Origin: an uncultured Gemmatimonadales bacterium
GTDB lineage: Bacteria > Gemmatimonadota > Gemmatimonadetes > Gemmatimonadales > GWC2-71-9
DNA length: 64,000 nucleotides
NCBI GenBank assembly: GCA_963844035.1
Contig: CAWJMT010000009.1
Span: forward strand, 1-64,000
Direction of reading: 5' to 3'
Under the pieces are notes generated by a model, which had not been told where the DNA came from, ran no database searches, and saw only the letters and a program-made list of their open reading frames with translations. The translations under genes and the position numbers were made by a program. Shown here one piece after another: positions 7,354 through 22,051 of the stretch (the first letter of the stretch is position 1; each line of letters begins with the position of its first letter).

Positions 7354-7761
7354 TCACGGAGCGCGGAACTGACCCATGTAGGCGATGAGCGACTCGATCT
7401 CGCCCGGGGCCAACCGCAGGTTCGGCATCTTGACGTACTTGTACTGGACCAACATCGCGTCCGCGATGTCGTCGGACCCAAACATTGCCATCGGGTCCTT
7501 CAGCCACTGCTTAAGCCACTCGTGGGTGCGGCGGTCAGTGACACCGGCCAGATCCGGGCCTTCAGCCGTGCGCTCTTCCTTCCTGCCGATGGTATGGCAG
7601 AAATTGCAGCCGCGGTTGACGAAGACCTTCCTGCCCTGCTCCGCCTGCGCCGGATCGACACGCGAGTTAGCCTGCGCGAGACTCTGACGCGCGCCGAGGG
7701 TCAGTGCGAACATGGCCACGGCACCGCCACACAGTACCAAACGCGAGATAGGTTTGAACAT
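7354..7761 (-). CDS. Periplasmic class I monoheme cytochrome c, paralog of 1402..1774
   Basis: Signal peptide, CNFCH, GPDLAGVT, WLKDP, VKMPNL. Confidence 0.85.
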   Translation of the reverse strand: MFKPISRLVLCGGAVAMFALTLGARQSLAQANSRVDPAQAEQGRKVFVNRGCNFCHTIGRKEERTAEGPDLAGVTDRRTHEWLKQWLKDPMAMFGSDDIADAMLVQYKYVKMPNLRLAPGEIESLIAYMGQFRAP

Positions 7762-9347: not shown

Positions 9348-11377
9348 ACGGCGTAGTCGGGCATGCAGCAACCCTGAGCGCCCTGGCGCTCTCGGTCTTC
9401 GGGGTGGTCGTTGCATTCGTTGGTGGGCGGCGGCGCGACGCCCGGTATGTCATCGCCGCCCAGCGGGCCGGGGTGGGCGTCTTTGCCCTCGTTGTGCTGG
9501 CATTCGTGATGATGGAGCGGGCGCTGATCACGCATGACTTCAGCGTCAGTTACGTCGCCCAGGTGGGCAGCCGGGCCACACCACTCTTCTACACGATCAT
9601 TTCGGCGTGGAGCGCACTCGAGGGTTCCATCCTTTTGTGGGCGCTCATCCTCGCGACATACACGGCGCTGCTGGCGCTCTGGACCCGACGTCAAGGCGAC
9701 CCCCGCGCCGGCGTCGATCCGCAGCTGCCCTATGCTCTGGGAACCCTGTTTTTCGTCAATATCTTCTTCCTCCTCCTCATCTCGTGGCCTGCGAATCCGT
9801 TCCGCGCCATGAGCCCGATTCCACCGGACGGCCCGGGGCCGAACGCACTGCTGCAGAACAGCCCCTTCATGGGCGTTCATCCCCCGCTCCTCTATATCGG
9901 ATACGTGGGCATGTCGGTGCCGTTCGCGCTGGCGACGGGCGCGCTGCTCGCTGGCCGCCTGAATCCCGATTGGCCGAAGGTGATCCGGCGCTGGACGATG
10001 ATACCGTGGACCTTCTTGTCGCTTGGCATCGTGGCCGGCGCCTGGTGGTCGTACGAGGTCCTCGGATGGGGCGGGTACTGGGCCTGGGACCCGGTCGAGA
10101 ACGCCTCCTTCATGCCGTGGCTCACCGCCACGGCGTTTTTGCACTCGGTGATGGTGCAAGAACGGCGGGGAATGCTGAAGACATGGACGATCACGCTGAT
10201 CGTGTCCACGTTCCTCCTGACGGTGCTGGGCACGTTCCTCACGCGCAGCGGAGTACTCGCCAGCGTGCATGCCTTCACGCAGAGCCCGATCGGCCCGTTC
10301 TTCCTGACCTTCCTCGGGATCGTGCTGCTGGCCTCACTGACGTTGCTGGCGTGGCGCAGTGAGGCGTTGAGCAGCGAGGGACGGTTCGATGCCGCGCTGT
10401 CGCGCGAGTCGGCGTTCATGATCAACAACCTGCTGTTCGCCGGCTTCACGTTCGTCGTGCTGCTCGGCACGATGTTCCCCCTGATCGCTGAAGCCGCGCG
10501 GGGAGTCAAGGTCAGCGTCGGCGGCCCGTACTTCAACCAGATGAGCGTGCCGATCGCCCTGATGCTCATTTTCCTGGCGGGCGTGGGACCGGCCCTCCCC
10601 TGGCGCAAAGGCTCGCTCGAGCTGTTGCGGGGCAAGTTCCGCTGGCCGACGATCGCCGCCCTGGCAGCGGGCGTGGTGCTCGCCGTCGCGGGCGTGCGTG
10701 CCCCGCTCGCCTGGCTGGCGTTCGTGCTTGCGGTGTTCTCGACGGGGCTCTTGGCCGTGGAATTCCTCGGCCCGGCGCGCGCCCGCCGCTCGACCACCGG
10801 CGAGTCGTGGCCGCTGGCGCTGTGGCGGGTGTGCGCGAGCAATCGCCGCCGCTACGGCGGGTACGTCGTGCACGGGGGCATCCTGGTGCTCGCGGTTGGA
10901 GTCGCTTCGTCCGCGACGTTCCGGAAAGAGCAGGAGTGGAATCTGGAGCGGGGCCATACCGAGGCGTTCGGACGCTACCAGATCCGCTTGGACTCGGTCT
11001 GGGCCGTCCATGAATCGAACCGGGACGGAGTGATCGCGGCCACCACGGTAACAGTGGGTGGCAAGGTCCTGACCCGTCTATCTCCCCGTCTCAACTACTA
11101 CAAATCGGCCATGGAGCCGATCGGCACGCCGGCGGTGCGGGAGAGTCTGCGGGAGGACATCTACCTCGTGCTGATGGCGTACACCGCCGACGGGTCGCAC
11201 GCCACGATCAAGGCGATCGCGAGTCCGCTCGTGGCGTGGATTTGGCTTGGGGGGGGCATCGTGGGGCTGGGAGCACTGTTCGCTCTTTGGCCTGGCGGGG
11301 CTGGAGCGACGCGCCGCGACCCGATTCCAGAGCCGGGTCGCGCCCGGGCCCGTCCCGTAAGTGAGGCGAGGGTATGA
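9344..11377 (+). CDS. ccmF: Cytochrome c heme lyase CcmF
   Basis: HPPLLY, WGGYWAWDPVEN, TRSG..SVHAF. Confidence 0.95.
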   Translation: MNGVVGHAATLSALALSVFGVVVAFVGGRRRDARYVIAAQRAGVGVFALVVLAFVMMERALITHDFSVSYVAQVGSRATPLFYTIISAWSALEGSILLWALILATYTALLALWTRRQGDPRAGVDPQLPYALGTLFFVNIFFLLLISWPANPFRAMSPIPPDGPGPNALLQNSPFMGVHPPLLYIGYVGMSVPFALATGALLAGRLNPDWPKVIRRWTMIPWTFLSLGIVAGAWWSYEVLGWGGYWAWDPVENASFMPWLTATAFLHSVMVQERRGMLKTWTITLIVSTFLLTVLGTFLTRSGVLASVHAFTQSPIGPFFLTFLGIVLLASLTLLAWRSEALSSEGRFDAALSRESAFMINNLLFAGFTFVVLLGTMFPLIAEAARGVKVSVGGPYFNQMSVPIALMLIFLAGVGPALPWRKGSLELLRGKFRWPTIAALAAGVVLAVAGVRAPLAWLAFVLAVFSTGLLAVEFLGPARARRSTTGESWPLALWRVCASNRRRYGGYVVHGGILVLAVGVASSATFRKEQEWNLERGHTEAFGRYQIRLDSVWAVHESNRDGVIAATTVTVGGKVLTRLSPRLNYYKSAMEPIGTPAVRESLREDIYLVLMAYTADGSHATIKAIASPLVAWIWLGGGIVGLGALFALWPGGAGATRRDPIPEPGRARARPVSEARV

Positions 11378-12003
11378 AATGGAAGCAGTGGGCGATTCCG
11401 GCTAGCGGTGTACCGGTCGTCGCCTTCCTTGCCTGGGGACTCACCCAGGACCCTCATACGATTCCCTCTCCCCTGCCCGGCAAGCCCGCACCGGAGTTTG
11501 CACTCGAGACACTCAACGGTGACTCGCTGCGGTCGGATGCCCTCAAGGGGCACGTCGTACTGGTGAACTTCTGGGCGTCATGGTGCCTCGCCTGCCGTGC
11601 CGAGCATCCCGTCCTGGTGGAAGCGGCCAAGCGCTACCACGACCAGGGGCTGCGGGTGGTGGGGGTGGTGTATGAAGACTCGCGCGACAACGCCCGGGCC
11701 TGGATCGCCGAACGGGGTGGGGATTGGCCCAACGTGCTCGACGTGGGGAGTCACACAGCGATTGCGTATGGGTTGTTCGGGGTGCCGGAGACTTTCTTCG
11801 TTGGTCGCGATGGCCGCATCCTCTACAAGCAGATTGGTCCGCTGGACAAGGAAGTGATCGACCAGTGGGTGCCCAAGCTCCTCGCGGCCGGGGCTGAGGC
11901 CGCGGCTGCGCCGGCTGACACCTTTGCCGAGGGCCGGAGTGCAGGGCACGTGCGGGCTTCCCCTGAGTTCCCGACGGCGCGCGGGACCGCGCGCCCCAAG
12001 TAG
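11374..12003 (+). CDS. ccmG: Thiol-disulfide oxidoreductase CcmG/DsbE
   Basis: NFWASWCLAC, GVPETF. Confidence 0.9.
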   Translation: MKWKQWAIPASGVPVVAFLAWGLTQDPHTIPSPLPGKPAPEFALETLNGDSLRSDALKGHVVLVNFWASWCLACRAEHPVLVEAAKRYHDQGLRVVGVVYEDSRDNARAWIAERGGDWPNVLDVGSHTAIAYGLFGVPETFFVGRDGRILYKQIGPLDKEVIDQWVPKLLAAGAEAAAAPADTFAEGRSAGHVRASPEFPTARGTARPK

Positions 12004-12005
12004 CC

Positions 12006-13322
12006 ATGCGGTTCCAATCGCCCATCATCGCCGTGCTGACGTGGTGGCTCGCCGCAGCCGCCCCGCTCGCGGCGCAGGCGCGGCCCGATTCCGTGGTGAT
12101 CCCCAAGGACGCCGCGTTCGAAGCGAAGGTACGGGACGTGGCATTGTCGTTGCGATGCCCGGTGTGCCAAAACAATTCCATCGAAGAGTCCCCGCGGTCC
12201 TCGCGCAGGACATGAAGCGGGAAGTCCGGCAGCGCCTCGCCGCGGGTGAGTCGCCGGACGAGATCCGCCGCTACTTCGTCTCGCGCTACGGTGAATGGGT
12301 GCTCACCAAGCCTCGCGCCGCGGGCGTCAACCTTTCGGTCTGGCTGCTACCGGTGGTCGCGCTGTTTGCGGGCGCTCTCGTGGTCTGGAGCGCCGTACGC
12401 CGTTGGGTACGGCAGGGCGACGCCGCACGCGTTCAGGCCGCGGTCCCGGCGGCGCCGTCCGTCACGGAGCCCGTGGCCGCGCTCGATGCGGGCGAACTCC
12501 GCGCCCGCAAGGCGACGCTCCAGGCATCGCTCCAGGAGCTCGCCTCGGAGTTCGAGGCCGGGCGGCTCGACGCCCGCGACCTGGCGATCCTCAAGGAGCG
12601 TGACGAAGCCGAGCTGGCCAAAGTGGTGGAGTCTCTGAAGCGGCTGAAGAAAGAGACCGCGGATGCCGGCAAGACCCGCGCCGAGGCCCGCCCCGCAACG
12701 GCGGGGCCCGGCGGAGTCTGGCTCGCGACGGCTCGGCTGGAGCGTCGGGCTCGCGGGGTTCGCGCTGATCCTGGTGCTGACGCTACGGGGCTCGGTCGCG
12801 GCCCGACCCGAGGGAGCGGTGATCACCGGGTCGCAGGTGGCCAGCGTGGCGCCGGTCGACATGGAGCTTCAGAAGATTGGTCCCCTCGACTCGCTGCGCA
12901 TCGCGCAGCTGGAGGCGAAGGTCGCCGGGGATTCGACGAACGTACCGGCGCTGATCGAGCTGGGGCACCTCTATCTCGCGCAGGGATTGATCGAGAAAGC
13001 GACATTGGTGGATACGCTTGCGATCCGGTTGCAGCCGGATGCGCCGAGCAGCGCCGAGGCATTCGCGCACCTCGGCATGATTCTGTGGGGCACGGGCGAG
13101 ACCGAGGGCGCGCTTCAGTCGCTCGACAAGGCAGTGTTCCTGCGTCCGGAGCTGCCCGAAGCATTGCTGTACCGCGGGATCATTTTGTTTCAGGGGATGC
13201 AAGACATGGCGGCCGCCGCCGACGCATTCGATCACTACCTCGCTGTGGCGCCACCGGATGCCAACACCGGACGCATACGGGCCCTGCGCGATGCCGCACG
13301 GCAGGCAGCCACCGGGAGCTAG
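12006..13322 (+). CDS. ccmH: CcmH fused to or followed by a CcmI-like TPR region (frameshifts near 12195 and 12700)
   Basis: LRCPVCQN, YFVSRYGEWVL.KP; downstream TM segment and TPR-like helices in ORF 12663..13322. Confidence 0.8.
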
Positions 13323-13421
13323 AACGACAGAGCTCGCAAGCAGCTACCGTTGCGTCCGAATCAGCACTCCTGCAGCAGGTCGCCGTACCCGTCGTCCCGC
13401 TTGACGCGCTCCGGCGACCGA

Positions 13422-13874
13422 TCAGCATACCCGTCCGTTCCGCAGCCCCTCCAGGCCTTCGGCAGTCCTGGATCGGGTCTCCATTGTGGTCGAGTCCACA
13501 GTTTCTTCGTGTCCATTCGGCCCGGCGTCAGAAATGAGCCCAAAGTAGAGCCCAGCAACCGTGGCGACTCCCAGCGTGGTAAGCAGGATCGCCGTCCTGG
13601 TGCCATCGTGGACCTTCGCTTCGACGCTGCTGATCTCGCCGAGCGGAATCTTGACGCGTGCCCCGTCGAGCACACCTCGCAACGTGTCCCGCCTGACCTC
13701 GGGCTCGCCGACCGAAACGACGGTGTTGTTCTTGTAGGTCACCAACACGAAGGGGGGAGCGTTGTCTTGGAGGTAGGAAACGGGCTCGATGCGCCGAACC
13801 GACTTGCAGGAGGCCACGGCCGCGACTTCCAGGACAGCGCCGACCATCGCGATACGACGGTTGCGCACCATCAT
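13422..13874 (-). CDS. Tandem-array lipoprotein-like paralog A
   Basis: VASC lipobox-like site, PPFVLVTY..VGEPEVRRDTLRG..KIPL core, C-terminal hydrophobic helix; CGLDHNGDPIQDC in an adjacent frame. Confidence 0.65.
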   Translation of the reverse strand: MMVRNRRIAMVGAVLEVAAVASCKSVRRIEPVSYLQDNAPPFVLVTYKNNTVVSVGEPEVRRDTLRGVLDGARVKIPLGEISSVEAKVHDGTRTAILLTTLGVATVAGLYFGLISDAGPNGHEETVDSTTMETRSRTAEGLEGLRNGRVC

Positions 13875-13932
13875 CAGGCGTCCCTCGGAGATCGTGGGAG
13901 CATGCTTGACCATACAGTGGCACGGACAAGAT

Positions 13933-13966
13933 AAGGCGGGCGTAGTCACTCCGCTACGCCCGCCTT
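13933..13966 (-). terminator. Hairpin after array gene B
   Basis: AAGGCGGGCGTAG/CTACGCCCGCCTT inverted repeat. Confidence 0.55.
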
Positions 13967-14008
13967 TGACTCACCCGACGCCCGCTGGTGCGATTGGCAG
14001 GCCGAGCT

Positions 14009-14435
14009 TCACTCGGGGTCTAGCGGACAACAGTAGCCGGTCGGGGTGCCCTTTCACGACCGGACAACCAGTGAAGTTCGGGTCCCCGCCGTTACCAGCC
14101 GTCGAGATGGTGTACGCCACGCCCACGGTGGCCGCGGTCAGCACGGTCGCCAGCAGAATGGTCCTCTTCGGCGACGGCATCTTGGCCTGGACGGTCTGGA
14201 TCTCCGTCAGATGAAATCGCGACCGGCTCCGCGAGCCCCTGCCACGTGCCCAGCAGGCTGTCCCCGACGATCTTCGGGTCCGGACGACGGGAACGAATGA
14301 GTTGTCGGTGTAGGTGACCCACACGATGGGCGGGTTGTGCTCCGGGATGTACACGGTGGGCTGCACCGGCTTGACCACGTGACAGCCGGCGACGGCGACG
14401 ACCAGCCCAGCCAATGCGACGCTGTTCAGTTTCAT
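14009..14435 (-). CDS. Tandem-array lipoprotein-like paralog B (frameshifted)
   Basis: MKLNSVALAGLVVAVAGC lipobox; PPIVWVTYTDNSFVPV; tail GCPVVKG.PTGYCCPLDPE. Confidence 0.65.
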
Positions 14436-14689
14436 AACCTCGTGTCCTCTCGAGGGGTGTAGATTTGCAGACTCTACGTTCGCAGCTTGAAGCGTCCCTG
14501 GGGAATTGTCAAGGGTCGGCGGGTCGTCCCAAGGCAAATCGTTGCATTTAGCAAGACGGGTGTGGCACCCACAGGACTGGGGGTTCGCTTCGAAGCTAGA
14601 TAACGGAAGCACGAAGGTGGCGTAGCGATCACCGTTACGCCACCTTCCACAACCTGCTCGGCCGTGTGCCGTCAACAGCTTCGTGTTTC

Positions 14690-15107
14690 TCTCCGGGGTC
14701 AAGCGGACAACAGTAGCCGGTCGGTGTGCCCTTCGTAGCGACGACGGTGAAGTTCGGGTCCCCCGCTCCCAGCCGTCGAGATCTGTATAGGCCACGCCGA
14801 CGGCCGCCGGTTACGACGGTGGCCAGTAGCACGGTCCGCTTCGGGACGGCATCTTGGCCTGGACGGTCTTGATATCCGATCAGAGAATCGCGACGGGTTC
14901 CGCGAGCCCCTGCCACGTGCCCATCAGGCTGTCGCCGACGATCTTCGGCTCGGACACGGGAACGAATGAGTTGTCGGTGTACGTCACCCACACGACGGGT
15001 GGGTTCTGCTCCGGGATGAACACGGTGGGCTGAACGATTCCTGACCACGTGACAGCCGGCGACGGCGACGACCAAGCCCAGCGCACGGCGACGCTGTTCA
15101 GCTTCAT
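14690..15107 (-). CDS. Tandem-array lipoprotein-like paralog C (frameshifted, 3' end approximate)
   Basis: MKLNSV..VAVAGCHVV, PPVVWVTYTDNSFVPVSEPKIVGDSL, tail KGTPTGYCCPLDP. Confidence 0.6.
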
Positions 15108-15339
15108 AGACTGCCATCCTCTCGAGGGGTGTACCTCTACACGGTTGCTACGTGTCAGGCTCGAAGCCTCCCGTAGGGAATTTGTTCAGGAGCCGATACA
15201 GAACCGTTCCAACGAGCAAGTACGGGACGGCACGGCCATGAGGACAAGAAAGAAAGGCGGGCGTGGTCACCGCTTCACCACGCCCGCACCTTCTGTCGGA
15301 CCCGGCGGTCGCTGAACGGAACGCGCCGGCGGGGTTCTC

Positions 15340-15780
15340 TTACGCCGCTCGACGGCGCTCGGATCCACTGCGGACAATGCCGGAGTCGGCGTACCCTTCA
15401 CGACGCGGACAGCCGGAGAAGTTCGGGTCCCCGCCGTTGCCGGCCGTCGAAATGGTGTAGGCAACGCCTACGGTGGCCGCGGTCAACACGGTGGCCAGCA
15501 GAATGGTCCGCTTCGGCGACGGCATCTTGGCCTGGACGGTCTTGATCTCGCTCAGGTGAAATGGCGACCGGCTCCGCGAGCCCCGACCACGTGCCCATCA
15601 AGCTGTCCCCGACGATCTTCGGCTCTGACACTGGAACGAAGGAGTTGTCGGTGTAGGTCACCCACACGACGGGTGGGTTATGCTCGGGGATGATACACGC
15701 GTGGGCTGAACCGGCTTGACCACGTGACAGCCGGCGACGGCGACAACCAACCCCGCCAACACGACGTTGTTCAGTTTCAT
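15340..15780 (-). CDS. Tandem-array lipoprotein-like paralog D (frameshifted)
   Basis: MKLNNVVLAGLVVAVAGCHVVKPV; core as in B and C (ORFs 15398..15667 and 15340..15525). Confidence 0.6.
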
Positions 15781-15957
15781 AACCTGTCCTCTCGAGGGGT
15801 GTGCTCTACAGTCTACGTGTACCTTGAGGCGTCCGTTGGGAATTGCAAGGGGGGCCGTTTCAATCTAGCAGGAGGGTTGCTTGATTGTACCCGCCAGACG
15901 CCGATTGGGTTCGGTGCCGTCGCTACAGGCATCCCCAACCGCTAGGACGAGCTGCAG

Positions 15958-16365
15958 CTAGCAATACATGGAGGGGAAACCCCCGCACGTCGTACCCGCA
16001 GGTCGTACCTGGGTTCGAGCCAGCCTTCGAAATGGAGCCAAAATAGAGCGCCGACACGCGCCGCCACTCCCAGCGAGCCGACCAAGAGGGCCGTCTTGGT
16101 GTGGTCCTTGACCTTCGCCTCTACGCTCTGGATCTCGGACCAGAGGAATCCTCACCGGAGATCCCTGCACCGTTCCCCGCAACGTGTCCCGTCGGACCTC
16201 GGCTTCGGCGACCGCAACGACGATGGTGTCGCGATAGGTCACCCATACCAATCGAGGGGCGTGATCTTCGAGGTACGTCGTCGGGTAGATGGGCCGTACC
16301 GACGTACAGCGCGCCGACGCCAACAAGTCCGCAGCACAGACCGACAAGGCGACCCGGTCGAGCAT
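15958..16365 (-). CDS. Tandem-array lipoprotein-like paralog E (frameshifted, start uncertain)
   Basis: CTSVRPIYPTTYLEDHAPRLVWVTY..EVRRDTLRG; tail CGYDVRG...MYC. Confidence 0.6.
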   Translation of the reverse strand: MLDRVALSVCAADLLASARCTSVRPIYPTTYLEDHAPRLVWVTYRDTIVVAVAEAEVRRDTLRGTVQGSPVRIPLVRDPERRGEGQGPHQDGPLGRLAGSGGACRRSILAPFRRLARTQVRPAGTTCGGFPSMYC

Positions 16366-16410
16366 CCTGCCGGAGCCGGCGACGCAGCGAGCATGACGCC
16401 ATCCCGGGGG

Positions 16411-16825
16411 CTACATGCACTGCGGACTTCGCCTCGGGGTGTTCTTCCACGGCGTCGTTGGCGCAGTCGATGGTCACTCCCTCGGTCCCGACTGCGAAAT
16501 CCACAGGCGACGTAGATCGCCGGAAACAGCACCTACCCCCAGGGTAGCGAGCACAGAGCCCGTCTTGGTACCGTCCCGCACCTTCGCCTGGACGCTCTGA
16601 ATCGTCCGCCAGCGGAATCTTTACGCGAGCCCCTTCCAACGTTCCCCGCAGGGTGTCCCGCCGCACTTCAGGCTCGGCGACCGAAACCACCGTGTCGTTG
16701 TGGTAGGTCACCCACACCACCGGGGGGGCGTTCTCCTCGAGGTACGTCGTGGGATGGATGGGCCGTACCGACGTGCAGGCGCCGACCGTCACGAGTCCCA
16801 GGAGCAGACCGGCCACGGGCAACTT
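16411..16825 (-). CDS. Tandem-array lipoprotein-like paralog F (frameshifted, start uncertain)
   Basis: VGACTSVRPIHPTTYLEENAPPVVWVTY; tail CANDAVEEHPE..PQCM. Confidence 0.6.
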
Positions 16826-16836
16826 GTGGAGGGAGG

Positions 16837-17250
16837 TCAGCAATAGAGTTCGTTCCTCCCCCTCTTGTCGACCCCACAGTAGACGCGTCTCCGCCGCCGT
16901 TCGAAGACCCCGCCTGCGAAATGAGCCCGACGTAGAGAGCCGACAGCGCCGCCACTCCAAGGGTGCCGACCAACAGCGCCGTCTTCCCACCGTCGTGCAC
17001 CTTCGCCTGGACGGTCTGGACGTCTGCGAGCGGAATCTTTACGCGAGCTCCGTCCAGCGTTCCGCGCAGGGTGTCCCGCCGCACTTCGGGCTCGGTTGAC
17101 CGGAACCACCTTGTTGTCGTTATACGTCACCCACACGACCGGGGGGGCGTTGACTTCGAGGTACGTGGAGGGATGGATCGGCCGTACCGACGTGCAGGCG
17201 GCGGCGACGGCGCAGAATACTCCGACCAGTGCTACCCGGTTGTGCATCAT
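16837..17250 (-). CDS. Tandem-array lipoprotein-like paralog G (frameshifted)
   Basis: MMHNRVALVGVFCAVAAACTSVRP; tail CGVDKRGRNELYC. Confidence 0.65.
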   Translation of the reverse strand: MMHNRVALVGVFCAVAAACTSVRPIHPSTYLEVNAPPVVWVTYNDNKVVPVNRARSAAGHPARNAGRSSRKDSARRRPDRPGEGARRWEDGAVGRHPWSGGAVGSLRRAHFAGGVFERRRRRVYCGVDKRGRNELYC

Positions 17251-17336
17251 GTTCGCTTGTCCCCAGAAGTTTGGAAATTTCATGTGCAAGGCACATACCA
17301 GCGACCGCCGCGCGGCGACCGGTCCAGGACCCTCAC

Positions 17337-17753
17337 TCAGAATTCGCATTCCGGATGCTCATCGGGGTGCTTCGTGACCTCGTCGCCGGTGCAGTCCACG
17401 CCGACCTTGCTCGTCCCACCCGACACGAAGGCGAAGTACATGGTCGTGAGTGACCCCCGCCCCCACGCCGACCGCCAGGAGGGCCGTCCCGGTCTGGTTC
17501 GGCACCTTGGCCTCGACGGTGCGGATTTCCGACAAGGGAATCTTGATCCGCGCCCCCTGCAGCAATCCCCGCAGCGTATCCCGTTTGACTTCAGGCTCGG
17601 CAACGGGAACGACCGTGTTGTTTGCTGTAGGTCACCCACACCACCGGGGGGGCGTGCGTCTTCGAGGTATACCGCGGGTGGGACCGACCGCACGCTCGTG
17701 CAGGCGGCTACGCCGATGAGCAAACCCGCCGCGGCGAATCGACCACACCACAT
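17337..17753 (-). CDS. Tandem-array lipoprotein-like paralog H (frameshifted)
   Basis: LLIGVAACTSVRSVPP; RIKIPLSEIRTVEAKV; tail CTGDEVTKHPDEHPECEF. Confidence 0.65.
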   Translation of the reverse strand: MWCGRFAAAGLLIGVAACTSVRSVPPAVYLEDARPPGGVGDLQQTTRSFPLPSLKSNGIRCGDCCRGRGSRFPCRKSAPSRPRCRTRPGRPSWRSAWGRGSLTTMYFAFVSGGTSKVGVDCTGDEVTKHPDEHPECEF

Positions 17754-17853
17754 GGTCCGGAAGCCCCCGAGAGTAAAGAAGGACAGCTACGGCAACATTG
17801 ACCTGCCCCCAGGCGGCGTGTCAAGCTCGCGAGCGTGGTGGTGCTGCAAACTG

Positions 17854-18568
17854 TTACCGCGGCCGCCGGAACAACCGGTTCCAGCGAATCCGGAATGGAT
17901 CCGTGGCGACGCTCATATAGATGAAGAGGGTGCGCCCCAGGATGTGCGACCGGGGGAGGAATCCCCAGTAGCGACTGTCGTACGACTCGTCCCGGTTGTC
18001 CCCCATGACCCAGTACATGTCCTGCGGGAACAACGATCGGGCCCCAATCATGGGTGGTGGGACGGTAGTTCGCCGCGTCGCGCCCCACATAGTGGGGCAG
18101 GTGCAACGCACGGATCTGCTGGAGACGGAATCCTTCATCGGTGGCCGTGCCGCTGCCGAGGTGCAGGGTGTAGGGCTCGTCCAAGCGCCGACCGTTGCGA
18201 AACACCGTGTCGTGCACCATCCGCAGCGTGTCGCCCGGCGCGCCGATAACGCGCTTCACGATGTCGAGGTTCGGAGTGGAGTCCTCAACCGATCGAAAGA
18301 TGACGACGCGATCGCGCTGCGGCTCGGCGTATCCGGGGACGTGGAGGAAGCGAAGGCCGGTCAGCGGGATCTCGAGCTCGCCGCCGTAGGCCGCCTTGTT
18401 GACGAACAGGAAATCGCCCACGAGGAGCGTGTTTTCCATGCTGGCGGACGGAATGCGGAATGCCTCGACGACGTACGACCGGAGGAGAATCCAAATGACC
18501 AGGGCCGCGCCGATCGACTTAGCCCAGCCGAGCGCCCACTCCCGAAAGCTTTGTGGCGTCTGGCTCAG
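17854..18568 (-). CDS. lepB: Signal peptidase I (frameshift near 18020; start approximate)
   Basis: FRIPSASMENTL (catalytic Ser), IVKRVIG (Lys), MGDNRDESYDSRYWG. Confidence 0.9.
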
Positions 18569-19587
18569 GGGTGCTCGACCCAGTCGGCGATGAAGACGTT
18601 GGTTTCGCGGGGCTCTTTGCGCCCGCGGCCCGAGACCCACATCAGCTGCTTGCCGTCAGGCGAGAACATAGGGAACGCATCGAACTGACTGGATGTGGTA
18701 ACACGCTCGAGGCCCGTTCCGTCCAGGTTGACCAGGAACAGATCGAAGTCGTAGCCCTCGGGGTGGAGATAGTTGGACGCAAAGATGATACGCTTGCCAT
18801 CCGGGTGGAAATAGGGTGCGAAGCTCGGGCCGGCGAAGTGGATCACCATGCGCTGGTTCGAGCCGTCGGCGTTCATGACCCAGATGTCCACGTCCCACGG
18901 TTTCACGAGGGGGGGCCGCTCGGCCAGCCGCGAGGCATACTGAACGGAGTCCGCGCCGTGGGGATGGAAAGCGCGATACACGATCATCTTGCCGTCGGGC
19001 GAAAACGCGGGGCCGCCGTCGTACCCGAGCGTGTGCGTCAGGCGGCGGACGTTCGACCCGTCGATCTTCATCGTGTAGATCTCGAGATCGCCGTCCCTCA
19101 GCGACGTATAGACGATCGTCTTACCATCCGGTGAGACCGTGGCTTCGGCCGTATAGACCGAGTCTCTGGTCAAGGCGCGCTTGTCCGAGCCGTCGGCCTT
19201 GGCCGTATAGATGTTGTACGGGTACAGCGCCCACACGTAGCCCTTGGAGTGGTCCGGTGGCGGTGGGCAGGCCGAGTCGGCTGCTTCGGTACTGGCGTAG
19301 AGGATGCGATTGCCCTTCTGGTAGAACCACCCACACGTATTACGCCCGCGACCGCTCGAGACACGCCGCATCCCCGAGCCGTCCACCCCCATGGTGTACA
19401 TCTGGTCGCACTTCTCGTCGGGCCCGGTTCGCTGGAAGATGATCTGCTTTCCTGAGGCGGAGAAATAGGCCTCGGCGTTCTGGCCCCCATGGGTCAACTG
19501 CCGGATATTGCGAAGGTGGACCTCGCCCGAGTCTGGGCGCACGGCGCCCTGAGCGAGGGTCAGCAGCAGGAGTGCAGTCGCGCTCAT
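18565..19587 (-). CDS. Secreted TolB-like beta-propeller (PD40 repeat) protein
   Basis: Signal peptide and repeated SPDGK / P.FSPDG motifs. Confidence 0.85.
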   Translation of the reverse strand: MSATALLLLTLAQGAVRPDSGEVHLRNIRQLTHGGQNAEAYFSASGKQIIFQRTGPDEKCDQMYTMGVDGSGMRRVSSGRGRNTCGWFYQKGNRILYASTEAADSACPPPPDHSKGYVWALYPYNIYTAKADGSDKRALTRDSVYTAEATVSPDGKTIVYTSLRDGDLEIYTMKIDGSNVRRLTHTLGYDGGPAFSPDGKMIVYRAFHPHGADSVQYASRLAERPPLVKPWDVDIWVMNADGSNQRMVIHFAGPSFAPYFHPDGKRIIFASNYLHPEGYDFDLFLVNLDGTGLERVTTSSQFDAFPMFSPDGKQLMWVSGRGRKEPRETNVFIADWVEHP

Positions 19588-19684
19588 AGGGCTGGGAAGC
19601 TAGAGAACACGGGGAGTTTGGGCAACGGGCGGCGGGTTCCCCTGCGCCCGTTTGGAGCCAAATCCTAGTATAATTGTGGCTTCC

Positions 19685-20002
19685 ATGAGCGATCTGAACG
19701 CCCGCCGTCCCCGCGCGCCGTTACTGGACGCGCTCGGCAAGATGTGCGTCGAGGGCAAGCAGCTGGCAGAGTACTTGTGGCAGGTGCCGGATGACGCCGG
19801 GGCACGCCAGCAGATCGTCGCGCTGCTCGACAAGATCGCCGCCGAGGGCACAAAGCAGGGCCGGAAGGAAATGCCCCGCATCTGCGAGGAGCTGTCCCTC
19901 GCGGCGAAAGCGACAGCCAGTCCCCAGCAGGTCGATTTGTTGGTGAACGGTTTCGACCGGCTGTACCAGTTGTGGCAGGCCGCCAAGTCCGGCCTCCTTT
20001 GA
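19685..20002 (+). CDS. Hypothetical helical protein
   Basis: Clean 105-aa ORF with good codon pattern, preceded by TATAAT and lying upstream of tkt. Confidence 0.65.
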   Translation: MSDLNARRPRAPLLDALGKMCVEGKQLAEYLWQVPDDAGARQQIVALLDKIAAEGTKQGRKEMPRICEELSLAAKATASPQQVDLLVNGFDRLYQLWQAAKSGLL

Positions 20003-20026
20003 CCCGCTGACCGGAGATCAACAAGA

Positions 20027-22051
20027 ATGACGCAAGGTGTCGCTGCCAAACCCATGAGCCTGGACCTGCTCTGCATCAACACCGTCCGTGCGTTGTCGAT
20101 GGACGCGGTGCAGAAGGCGAACTCGGGCCATCCCGGTACCCCGATGGCGCTGGCCCCGGTCGCCTACGTCCTGTGGCAGCGCCACATGCGCTACAACCCG
20201 GCGAATCCCGCGTGGGCGGGGCGAGACCGGTTCGTGCTGTCCTGCGGTCACGCGTGCATGCTGCAGTATGCCGCGCTCTACCTCACCGGCTACGATCTCT
20301 CGCTCGACGATCTGAAGCAGTTCCGGCAGTGGGGGAGCCACACGCCCGGCCACACGGAGTACGGGCACACCCCCGGGGTCGAGGTCACGACCGGGCCGCT
20401 GGGTCAGGGCATTGCGAATGCCGTAGGGATGGCGCTGGCGGAGGCCCATCTGGCCGCGACGTTCAACCGCCCCGGGCATGCCGCCGTCGACCACTACACG
20501 TACTTCCTGTGCTCCGACGGCGACTTGATGGAAGGTGTGTCGCACGAGGCCTGCTCCTTCGCCGGGCACTTGAAGCTGGGCAAGTTGATCGGGATGTACG
20601 ACGACAATCACATCACGATCGACGGCAAGACGGAAATCACGTTCTCGGACGACACCGCCAAGCGGTTCGAGAGCTATGGGTGGCACGTGCAGCGGGTGGC
20701 CGACGGCAACGATATCGCGGCGATCGATGCGGCCCTCGTGGCGGCGCGCCGCGTGACCGACAAGCCGTCTCTCATCATCCTGCGGACGCACATCGGGTTC
20801 GGGAGCCCCAACAAGCAGGACACCCCGGGCGCCCATGGCGCTCCTCTGGGAGAGGAGGAGGTCAAGCTGACCAAGCAGAACCTCGGCTGGCCAAGCCTCG
20901 AGCCATTCCACGTGCCCGAAGAGGCGCTCGCGCACTGGCGCCAGGCGAAGGCACGCGGCGCGCAGCTCGAAGCCGAGTGGAACAAGAAGGCCGCCGCCTA
21001 TCGTCAGGCCCATCCCGACCTCGCAGCCGAGCTGGAGCGCAGGCTTGCCGGCCGGTTGCCCGACGGCTGGGATGCCGACCTCCCTGTGTTCACGCCCAAG
21101 GATGCGCAGGCGACGCGGGCGGCGTCCGGAAAAGTCCTGGCGGCGATCGCGGCCAAGGTCCCCGAGTTGATCGGCGGATCGGCGGATCTCGCGGAGTCGA
21201 CGAACGTCGTGTTCCACAAGGCGGGCGAGCTCGAGCCCGGGAATCTGGCGGGCCGGAACATGCACTTCGGCATCCGCGAACACGGCATGGGCGCGATCAT
21301 GAACGGCATGGCATTGCACGGAGGCGTCCGACCACTCGGTTCGACGTTCTTCATCTTCTCGGAGTACATGCGGCCCCCGATCCGGCTGGCGGCGTTGTGC
21401 AACCTGCCGGTGATCTACGTGTTCACCCATGACTCGATTGGGCTCGGCGAAGACGGGCCGACACATCAGCCGATCGAGCAGCTCGCCTCGATGCGCGCCA
21501 TCCCGAATCTTCTGGTGCTCCGGCCGGCGGACCCGACCGAAGTGGTCGAAGCGTGGCGGGTGGCCCTCACCCATCGGACTGGGCCGGTCGCTCTGGTGCT
21601 CACGCGCCAGAAGCTGCCTGTGATCGATCGCGCCAAGTATCCGCCCGCGAGCGGGCTGCGGCAGGGCGCATACGTAGTCGCCGATGCCCAGGGAGGCGAT
21701 CCGGCCGTGATCCTGATGGGGTCCGGCTCGGAGGTCGAGCTGGTGATGGGCGCCTACGAGAAGCTCACGGCCGAGGGCATCAAGACACGCGTGGTAAGCG
21801 TGCCGTCAATGGAGCTGTTCGCTCAGCAGCCCCAGAAGTACCGCGACACGGTGCTCCCACCGGCGGTACGGACCCGGGTCGCCGTCGAGGCGGCCATCGC
21901 CCAGCCGTGGTACCGGTGGCTCGGGGATCGCGGTGTAATGTTGGGAATCGAGCGGTTCGGTGCCTCGGCGCCGGCTCCACGGATCTACCAGGAGTTCGGC
22001 CTGACCGTCGATAACGTCGTGAAGAAAACGAAGGAACTGCTGGGGAAGTAG
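20027..22051 (+). CDS. tkt: Transketolase
   Basis: [37 protein letters not shown]. Confidence 0.97.

Follow-up and report, generated by a model that had tools for sequence, protein, structure and literature searches.

What does a run of eight small, frame-broken genes encode in the genome of an uncultured Gemmatimonadales bacterium from soil? The genes lie on the minus strand at 13462-17753 of the window, by which we mean the whole 64,000-nucleotide stretch analysed (GenBank assembly GCA_963844035.1, contig CAWJMT010000009.1, positions 1 to 64,000). Three-frame translation and frameshift-aware alignment to intact homologues identified them as paralogs of one small gene. A 34-nt core segment occurs eight times between 13729 and 17655 at spacings of 419-674 nt, and all eight copies are built alike: a lipobox Cys closes the signal peptide, the conserved core (PPxVWVTY...DTLxG...IPL...V.AK) comes next, and after it a hydrophobic helix leads through a linker of Gly and Ser to a tail bounded by Cys. 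A first-pass annotation had counted eight copies, divided them into two subfamilies (B-D against A and E-H) and placed them with the ccm genes on one side and lepB, which encodes a signal peptidase I, on the other. The count is borne out by the recurrence of the core, the translations and the recovery of every copy by alignment, and the subfamilies and the position hold as well.

Our preferred answer, to which we give slightly less than an even chance, is that these are functional paralogs of an uncharacterised family of envelope lipoproteins, with reading frames broken by errors of assembly, which present class-specific disulfide loops on a constant anchor outside the cytoplasm. Under this proposal, one ancestral gene, located downstream of the gene for a PD40 propeller, would have given rise to the eight paralogs by tandem duplication. 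Each product would be exported by a lipoprotein signal of the signal peptidase II type and lipidated on the conserved Cys. The barrel formed by the core would, together with the helix, make up a constant anchoring module, and the last 13-30 residues would be the variable working part. Outside the cytoplasm, the cell's VKOR/DsbA-type system would form a disulfide between the paired Cys and so close the loop in the tail. The tail classes (GD, RG, KHP and four-Cys) are each an old, conserved paralog lineage, and each may recognise a different ligand or partner, located in the envelope or on the cell surface.

A predicted lipoprotein signal, a small barrel and a single helix

The N-termini of the family have the features by which signal peptidase II lipoproteins are recognised, that is, a positive n-region, a short h-region and a lipobox ending in Cys. 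Across 222 proteins the n-region holds 1.48 K+R and 0.14 D+E, the uncharged h-region averages 13.5 residues and the Cys follows small residues. A strict lipobox pattern together with a hydrophobic helix at the expected distance was found in 109 of 163 family proteins. Twenty-four proteins that failed the pattern were inspected; all 22 full-length ones have a Cys after the h-region and the other two are N-terminally truncated. The lipobox Cys is invariant in alignments A1 and A3. We predict that the N-terminal segment is a cleaved lipoprotein signal and not a membrane anchor. The reversed topology, with this segment as an N-out transmembrane (TM) helix and the barrel in the cytoplasm, was rejected on the length of the h-region and because the n-region is the more positive flank.

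AlphaFold2 (AF2) models of the core have a predicted local distance difference test score (pLDDT) of 87-91 over residues 41-80 and contain one short helix and five strands. The best structural matches were the RimP C-domain and Hfq/Lsm proteins (Z 7.4-7.9 over 57-68 residues), a level that may reflect only the common small-barrel arrangement, and a Foldseek search of the small protein against the PDB gave no match at E<=0.001. On these models the core is a putative small Sm/SH3-like beta-barrel. What the family has in common with Sm/Hfq/Lsm proteins and the RimP C-terminal domain is the predicted fold, in which the short helix precedes five bent strands. The latter are RNA- or ribosome-binding proteins of the cytoplasm, whereas the barrel described here is predicted to be exported and lipid-anchored; there is no sequence similarity, and the Pfam LSM and Hfq models match 0 of 92 members. 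The DUF903 lipoproteins (YgdI/YgdR) are also small, with an SH3-like barrel as their mature part, and we found weak fold matches to PDB entries 2k57, 2rb6, 2ra2 and 3bdu (Foldseek E 0.05-0.1; Z 6.0 for 3bdu), which we take to belong to DUF903. However, DUF903 proteins have neither the helix nor the Cys tail, and the DUF903 Pfam model matches none of the 92 members. Some relatives (P0080 and P0125; L028, L086 and L088) have two tandem barrel domains before the helix.

The helix is preceded by an Arg or Lys in 87 of the 92 members and by a Thr in all of them. Its ten central positions are 38-88% Gly, Ala, Ser or Thr. A homo-oligomer prediction with four copies of the mature protein returned a score of 0.00 and gave no verdict.

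The tails form a few conserved classes

The tail, which follows the helix, averages 25 residues and is acidic or neutral. Across the family as a whole, tail sequences and tail lengths vary widely, whereas the Cys content is regular. Among 109 complete members 18 have no Cys, one has a single Cys, 75 have two, none has three and 15 have four, so that 90 of the 91 Cys-containing tails have two or four. The two-Cys loops are 0-19 residues long (median 11), with Cys as the last residue of the protein in 26 of the 75, and C..CC..C frameworks recur.

Among 120 close relatives the tails divide into KHP (43), RG (39), GD (30) and other (8). The class motifs are DCTGDEVTKHPDEHPEC and relatives for KHP, YC[PG]xD[VK]RGRxxx[FY]C for RG and CGLDxxGDPIQDC for GD. 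Mean pairwise identity within a class is 0.62-0.67 for the barrel, 0.56-0.60 for the helix, 0.38-0.47 for the linker and 0.58-0.76 for the loop. The constraint on the loop is thus no weaker than that on the barrel, and it is the linker that is free to vary. When five tail labels were placed on a tree of barrel plus helix, in which many forks are unresolved, 16 changes were needed against a mean of 64 for shuffled labels, and none of 200 shuffles gave as few. The tail classes thus follow the phylogeny of the core.

These identities do not fit the suggestion, made at first reading, that the tails are hypervariable. The accompanying idea of a constant scaffold displaying a library of loops survives in part, in that there is a constant module with an exchangeable C-terminal part: in different relatives the same lipobox-barrel-helix module carries Cys loops, no tail at all or a domain of 380 residues. 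The library is better described as a few old, conserved loop classes on a constant anchoring module found in several phyla.

The same annotation had left open whether the loops are closed by disulfides or bind metal. We favour disulfides, since the Cys counts are even and the loop lengths are free. For disulfide formation the genome has a VKOR homologue and three DsbA-like genes, one of them next to VKOR; a search for DsbB found none in the genome, which is 84% complete. The C-terminal disulfide loop of type IV pilins resembles the tails in lying at the extreme C-terminus between two bounding Cys, in varying between types and in being used for binding. Type IV pilins are unrelated proteins on a different scaffold, and the likeness is one of analogy only.

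An unnamed family expanded in one genus

The annotation had not recognised the family, and our searches agree. With the fragments in the window, Pfam and NCBIfam gave nothing above threshold. With 92 members, Pfam gave four families with one member each (E 0.0016-0.0087), PHROGs two unnamed families with one member each, and NCBIfam three stray matches, so that none of the three holds a matching family. A sequence search of the PDB returned only BamE, at E 0.5 and over the signal-peptide region. The nearest ESM Atlas clusters of the small protein are unnamed and mostly from Gemmatimonadota, and named members are annotated at source as 'hypothetical protein'. Literature searches on lipoproteins, spanins and Gemmatimonadota paralogs, covering listings and abstracts, returned nothing on this family.

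A profile built from 13 intact members found 634 representatives at E<=0.001 among 1.84 billion cluster representatives, mostly Gemmatimonadota, and 110 of these match at 1e-10 or better. Each of the six other genomes of the window's genus has 10-30 family matches. In other genera of the same family-rank taxon 7 of 18 genomes have 1-3 matches, and in the two other families of the order matches were found in 1 of 8 and 0 of 8 genomes. A sample across the phylum had a match in 59 of 151 genomes, with at least 20-28 in the three genomes of the window's genus (a lower bound, as 28 candidates were scored per genome) and 1-8 elsewhere. In the present genome about 22 further copies lie on eleven other contigs, some in small tandem groups. 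On these counts the family is strongly expanded in the genus of the window. A pattern search of the genome contigs with alignment A1 gave 25 pattern matches, none of which was confirmed.

The side of the membrane on which the tail lies

In Sec-dependent export, a single hydrophobic helix that follows a cleaved N-terminal signal normally acts as a stop-transfer anchor and leaves the tail in the cytoplasm. The family could accordingly consist of bitopic inner-membrane lipoproteins, with a periplasmic barrel, a stop-transfer helix and a cytoplasmic Cys tail that binds a metal or a partner, forming a small device for coupling across the membrane. Besides being the default for such an arrangement of signal and helix, this topology would suit the KHP motif (C-x2-D-x-V-x-[KE]-H-P-x-E-[HY]-P-E-C), which is rich in potential metal ligands. 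The charges point the other way. The 12 residues before the helix hold 2.9 K+R and 1.05 D+E and the tail 1.4 K+R and 2.6 D+E, which is the reverse of the positive-inside bias for a helix running from out to in, and the same reversal is seen in the family of fused proteins described below. Furthermore, the even Cys numbers and the freely varying spacings fit no fixed metal site, and the recurring C..CC..C frameworks also speak against it. With the extracytoplasmic placing of the fused domain added, we regard the bitopic topology as rather unlikely.

A precedent for a lipoprotein signal combined with a C-terminal TM domain, which counts in favour of the bitopic topology, is provided by phage unimolecular spanins (u-spanins), as described in a survey (PMC6139136). 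They are the closest architecture to the family. According to the same survey, proteins of the T1 gp11 type have a lipoprotein signal, an exported beta-rich part of fewer than 100 residues and a C-terminal helix within about 130-140 amino acids (PMC6139136). The family might then comprise relatives of spanins, or envelope tethers, with the lipid in the outer membrane and the helix in the inner membrane, so that the protein bridges the periplasm. The order of parts would agree with this, as would the residue after the lipidated Cys, which is not Asp. However, membership fails on context, copy number and sequence. The family is chromosomal, with 20-30 scattered copies per genome, and the locus has neither a lysis cassette nor a phage context, its neighbours being ccm genes, lepB, the PD40 propeller gene and transketolase. 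No named PHROG matched any of the 92 members, and the Rz1-like NCBIfam model (P2_Rz1) matched one, at E 0.0017. The periplasmic part is a compact barrel of roughly 60 residues with short linkers, probably too short to cross a normal periplasm. Finally, the helix of the family leads into a conserved Cys-loop tail, whereas a periplasmic Cys is absent from all 58 u-spanins in the survey (PMC6139136). We give this bridging arrangement very little credence indeed.

The fused relatives bear on the compartment of whatever follows the helix. A search for longer fused forms found a single protein, P0271 (E 7.8e-12), in which lipobox, barrel and helix are directly followed by SCP[FLT][VIF]Y and a 380-residue domain. 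Matches to P0271 occur in 45 of 201 Gemmatimonadota genomes and cover most of the protein in about 14. In a scan combining a pattern with tblastn, 357 of 373 candidate stretches were confirmed, and the fused form occurs in Gemmatimonadota, Acidobacteriota, Aminicenantes, Eisenbacteria, Zixibacteria and others. We inspected the upstream region in 27 of the 80 fused loci kept, over a span of 150 residues, beyond which the N-termini of eight longer regions lie. Within this span a lipobox Cys is present in 17 of the 27, and a beta-rich part and a helix stand in frame directly before SCP in all but two, L082 (where the end of the barrel is in another frame) and L084. Counted separately with a filter, a lipobox-like Cys and the helix occurred together in 73 of 83 fused sequences.

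The domain itself (L016-L115, for example L020:841-1971) has no Pfam match, an invariant SCP[FLT][VIF]Y start and an AF2 pLDDT of 91.9. It is rich in beta-sandwiches, and its best matches, which are weak, are accessory domains of secreted glycosidases (E 2e-5, TM-score about 0.2); the ESM Atlas gave only unnamed clusters. In L084, an 834-residue Dehalococcoidia protein (L084:937-3333), the domain has no helix before it and lies between NosD/right-handed beta-helix repeats. Because this protein has an N-terminal signal peptide upstream of the domain and a C-terminal TM helix with RRRR as an anchor downstream, the domain is placed outside the cytoplasm. The possibility that SCP is a second lipobox in the fused family was rejected, as positions -2 and -3 are mostly Q/E and K and the motif is kept in L084.

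Taken together, three signals that are independent of one another, the even Cys counts, the reversed charge bias and the extracytoplasmic fused domain, lead us to favour a tail that is extracytoplasmic and disulfide-closed. The helix may be embedded in or span the outer membrane, or be packed in a bundle. Wza is a known example of such an order of parts, with a lipid anchor, a periplasmic domain and a C-terminal helix that crosses the outer membrane and leaves the C-terminus outside; this order would resolve the conflict over the topology of the family. The helix of Wza is amphipathic and forms an octameric barrel, and Pfam found no Poly_export or other Wza domain in the 92 members. By extension, the lipobox-barrel-helix module could be a widespread and undescribed way of placing a polypeptide beyond the outer membrane, an idea that we hold to be unlikely at present. 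The lipid and the Sm-like barrel would be periplasmic, and the helix of small residues, probably bundled, would cross the outer membrane. Exposed at the surface would be the cargo at the C-terminus: a disulfide loop in the Gemmatimonadales paralogs and the 380-residue double beta-sandwich in several phyla.

Counter-evidence and the origin of the frame breaks

Two groups of observations weigh against functional lipoproteins with extracytoplasmic loops, the first of which concerns the tail. Ordinary stop-transfer topology would leave it in the cytoplasm, and the evidence on its side of the membrane conflicts. The compartment of the 380-residue domain rests on one protein, L084, among the 27 of 80 loci inspected. 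The helix of the small family is only marginally hydrophobic, with a mean of +0.78 kcal/mol and 28% of 204 helices below 0 (calculated as a simple sum of the biological hydrophobicity scale), although by eye it looks clearly hydrophobic in several fused relatives. In addition, the Cys, His, Asp and Glu residues of KHP-class loops could serve to bind a metal.

The second group concerns the reading frames. Across about 3.4 kb the array contains 26 frame changes and one in-frame stop, and no copy is open in a single frame. At about 7.7 per kb, against about 0.4 per kb elsewhere, the breaks are in roughly twenty-fold excess. Copy D lacks the YCC segment of its class and has a degenerate tail, copy B stops right after the CC segment, and in copy A a CGA takes the place of the stop codon that follows the last Cys in orthologues. 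Some of the copies may really be decaying.

We aligned each copy to its best intact homologue with a frameshift-aware routine, which gives break positions only approximately. Copy A (13462..13874) has one break, near 13502, and a GD-class tail, CGLDHNGDPIQDC; it is identical to P0001 at 127 of 136 positions. Copies B, C and D are of the four-Cys class and match a sister-genome copy at 84/133, 89/136 and 79/132 positions. Copy B (14009..14435; CPVVKG.PTGYCC...) has three breaks and a TGA after CCPLDPE, so that its 3' end is uncertain; copy C (14672..15107) has five breaks plus the in-frame stop, reaches its fourth Cys only after another frame change and ends ...ETRSC*; and copy D (15340..15780) has three. 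Copy E (15958..16365) has four breaks, an RG-class tail (CGYDVRGFPL.MYC) and 110/130 identities to P0193. Copy F (16411..16846), which starts with TTG and overlaps the end of copy G by 10 nt, has five breaks, a KHP-related tail (CANDAVEEHPE..PQC) and 110/140 identities to P0012. Copy G (16837..17250; two breaks; RG-class tail CGVDKRGRNELYC) and copy H (17337..17753; three breaks; KHP-class tail CTGDEVTKHPDEHPECEF) match P0167 at 127/136 and P0253 at 127/137 positions. The tails that had been read initially for A, E, F, G and H are those of intact orthologues, whereas those for B-D were truncated readings of the C..CC..C framework.

If the breaks were real, the copies of this genome would be decaying pseudogenes, as the excess of breaks, the lost YCC segment in D and the lost stop codon in A might suggest. 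Several lines of evidence argue against decay. In copies A, G and H 93% amino-acid identity to intact orthologues is kept across all frame segments, on either side of the breaks. Intact homologues of 134-152 amino acids exist, and in a sister genome of the same genus (G002) the syntenic array has five unbroken copies. The assembly is indel-prone in general. In comparison with relatives, five of 14 conserved genes on contigs C9, C11, C21 and C27 are split, with five frame changes in 13.3 kb; the five are the ccmH-TPR gene and lepB in the window and three genes on the other contigs (C11, C21 and C27). A further break in ccmH-TPR was seen by eye, and other copies of the family elsewhere in this genome are also split. 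The breaks in the array are single- or two-base indels, some of them in non-repetitive context between near-identical copies, and indels of this size are typical of unpolished long-read consensus. We therefore consider it most likely that the 26 breaks are mostly or wholly assembly errors, with poor consensus or polishing in a block of similar paralogs as the obvious cause of the excess, and decay of the array as a whole as improbable.

Growth of the array from one gene

Read from lepB, the class order in the window is KHP-RG-KHP-RG-4C-4C-4C-GD (4C, four-Cys) and in G002 it is KHP-KHP-(RG-like)-4C-4C, so that the two arrays are similarly ordered. At the same site another genus has just one copy, which is of the B-D type but has a two-Cys tail; it comes directly after the PD40 gene, and no lepB is present. 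Hence the array has grown from one gene.

In the one intact recent pair, p1/p2 of G002 (two four-Cys copies, L011:7631-8710), the synonymous rate (dS) is 0.06 in the barrel and 0.51 in the tail, where the ratio of non-synonymous to synonymous rates (dN/dS) is about 0.47. This pattern suggests 5' gene conversion. Positive selection on the tails was considered and rejected, since this ratio and the rise in dS fit gene conversion better.

The locus and its neighbours

The co-directional neighbours of the array are lepB and the PD40 gene. The lepB paralog (Peptidase_S26; 17854..18640, minus strand, one frame break) lies directly upstream, followed by the gene for a PD40 (TolB-like repeat) beta-propeller (18565..19587, minus strand). 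On the other side, ccmH fused to a TPR (ccmI-like) part (12006..13322, plus strand, at least two frame breaks) is convergent with the array, and the proximity of the array to the ccm genes is probably incidental. In G002 the order is ccmC-E-F-G, ccmH-TPR, array, lepB, PD40 gene, transketolase.

Signal peptidase I is encoded twice in the genome, at 17854-18640 of the window and at G000:C35:181291-181875, and the gene beside the array is the lower-scoring of the two. The first-pass annotation had raised the option of a precursor from which a C-terminal peptide is released. In such a scheme the helix would act as an internal signal and the adjacent signal peptidase I would release the disulfide-cyclised C-terminal peptide as a signal or bacteriocin. 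The N-terminal flank of the helix is indeed positive, and small residues (S-Q-A-G-S, for example) come after the helix. In this genus, moreover, the second signal peptidase I gene runs in the same direction as the array, and in G002 the two are immediately adjacent. Cleavage, however, would need the helix to be N-in/C-out, which is opposite to the orientation imposed by the N-terminal signal peptide, whose h-region is too short for a TM helix and which puts the barrel outside. The array-adjacent lepB, present in the window's genus (G000 and G002), is absent from the locus in the other genus (G009). Most family copies are scattered and have no lepB nearby, and no maturase or export genes were seen at this locus. 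The released peptide thus found no support and seems to us highly improbable.

Multi-copy precursors of ribosomally synthesised and post-translationally modified peptides (RiPPs; NHLP/Nif11 leaders, prochlorosins) are similar in having many paralogs, a conserved N-terminal part, a Gly-rich junction and a Cys-containing C-terminus. They differ in being cytoplasmic, without signal peptides and near maturases or transporters, whereas the present family has a lipoprotein signal and class-conserved tails. A RiPP precursor family was rejected on the signal peptide and on the lack of maturase or transporter genes at this locus, other loci having been read only as lists of open reading frames (ORFs). 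A C-terminal sorting signal (PEP-CTERM, MYXO-CTERM, GlyGly-CTERM or the like) was also rejected. Such signals consist of a signature motif, a TM helix and a basic cluster at the extreme C-terminus, in that order, whereas in the family the helix stands before an acidic or neutral tail with no basic cluster, and there is no NCBIfam match.

Rfam gave no match over 11000-20500, and a sigma-70 promoter scan found no sites. There are six terminator-like sites, against 3.2 +/- 2.1 expected. Between copies B and A (13934-13965, minus strand) we read by eye a 12-bp GC-rich hairpin with an 8-nt loop, followed by TATCTTGT; the hairpin was not among the sites flagged in the terminator scan. Copies B, C and D have in common a conserved leader, CACCCCTCGAGAGGA, a few bases upstream of the ATG (14441-14470, 15113-15140 and 15786-15806), which is the probable location of the ribosome-binding site. 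An ORF of 116 residues (19652-20002, plus strand), with 76% identity in G002 and no Pfam match, lies between the genes for the PD40 propeller and transketolase. Two small c-type cytochrome-like paralogs at 1414-1764 and 7369-7743 (minus strand) are about 50% identical to a G002 gene beside ccmC.

Implications for the envelope of Gemmatimonadota

Gemmatimonadota are abundant in soil, and their cell envelope is almost unstudied. The family defined here, which has no entry in Pfam, NCBIfam or PHROGs, accounts for 20-30 genes per genome in one genus, and its anchoring module is common to larger proteins in at least five phyla. If the tail lies outside, the usual rules of topology would be broken, which would point to alpha-helical anchoring in the outer membrane beyond Wza. 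If that placing fails, they would be inner-membrane proteins of a new kind, anchored twice and with conserved Cys motifs in the cytoplasm. Should the tails be exposed beyond the outer membrane, the 20-30 paralogs specific to the genus would provide it with a repertoire of ligands or receptors at the surface. The tail classes, being discrete and conserved, offer ready-made probes for their partners.

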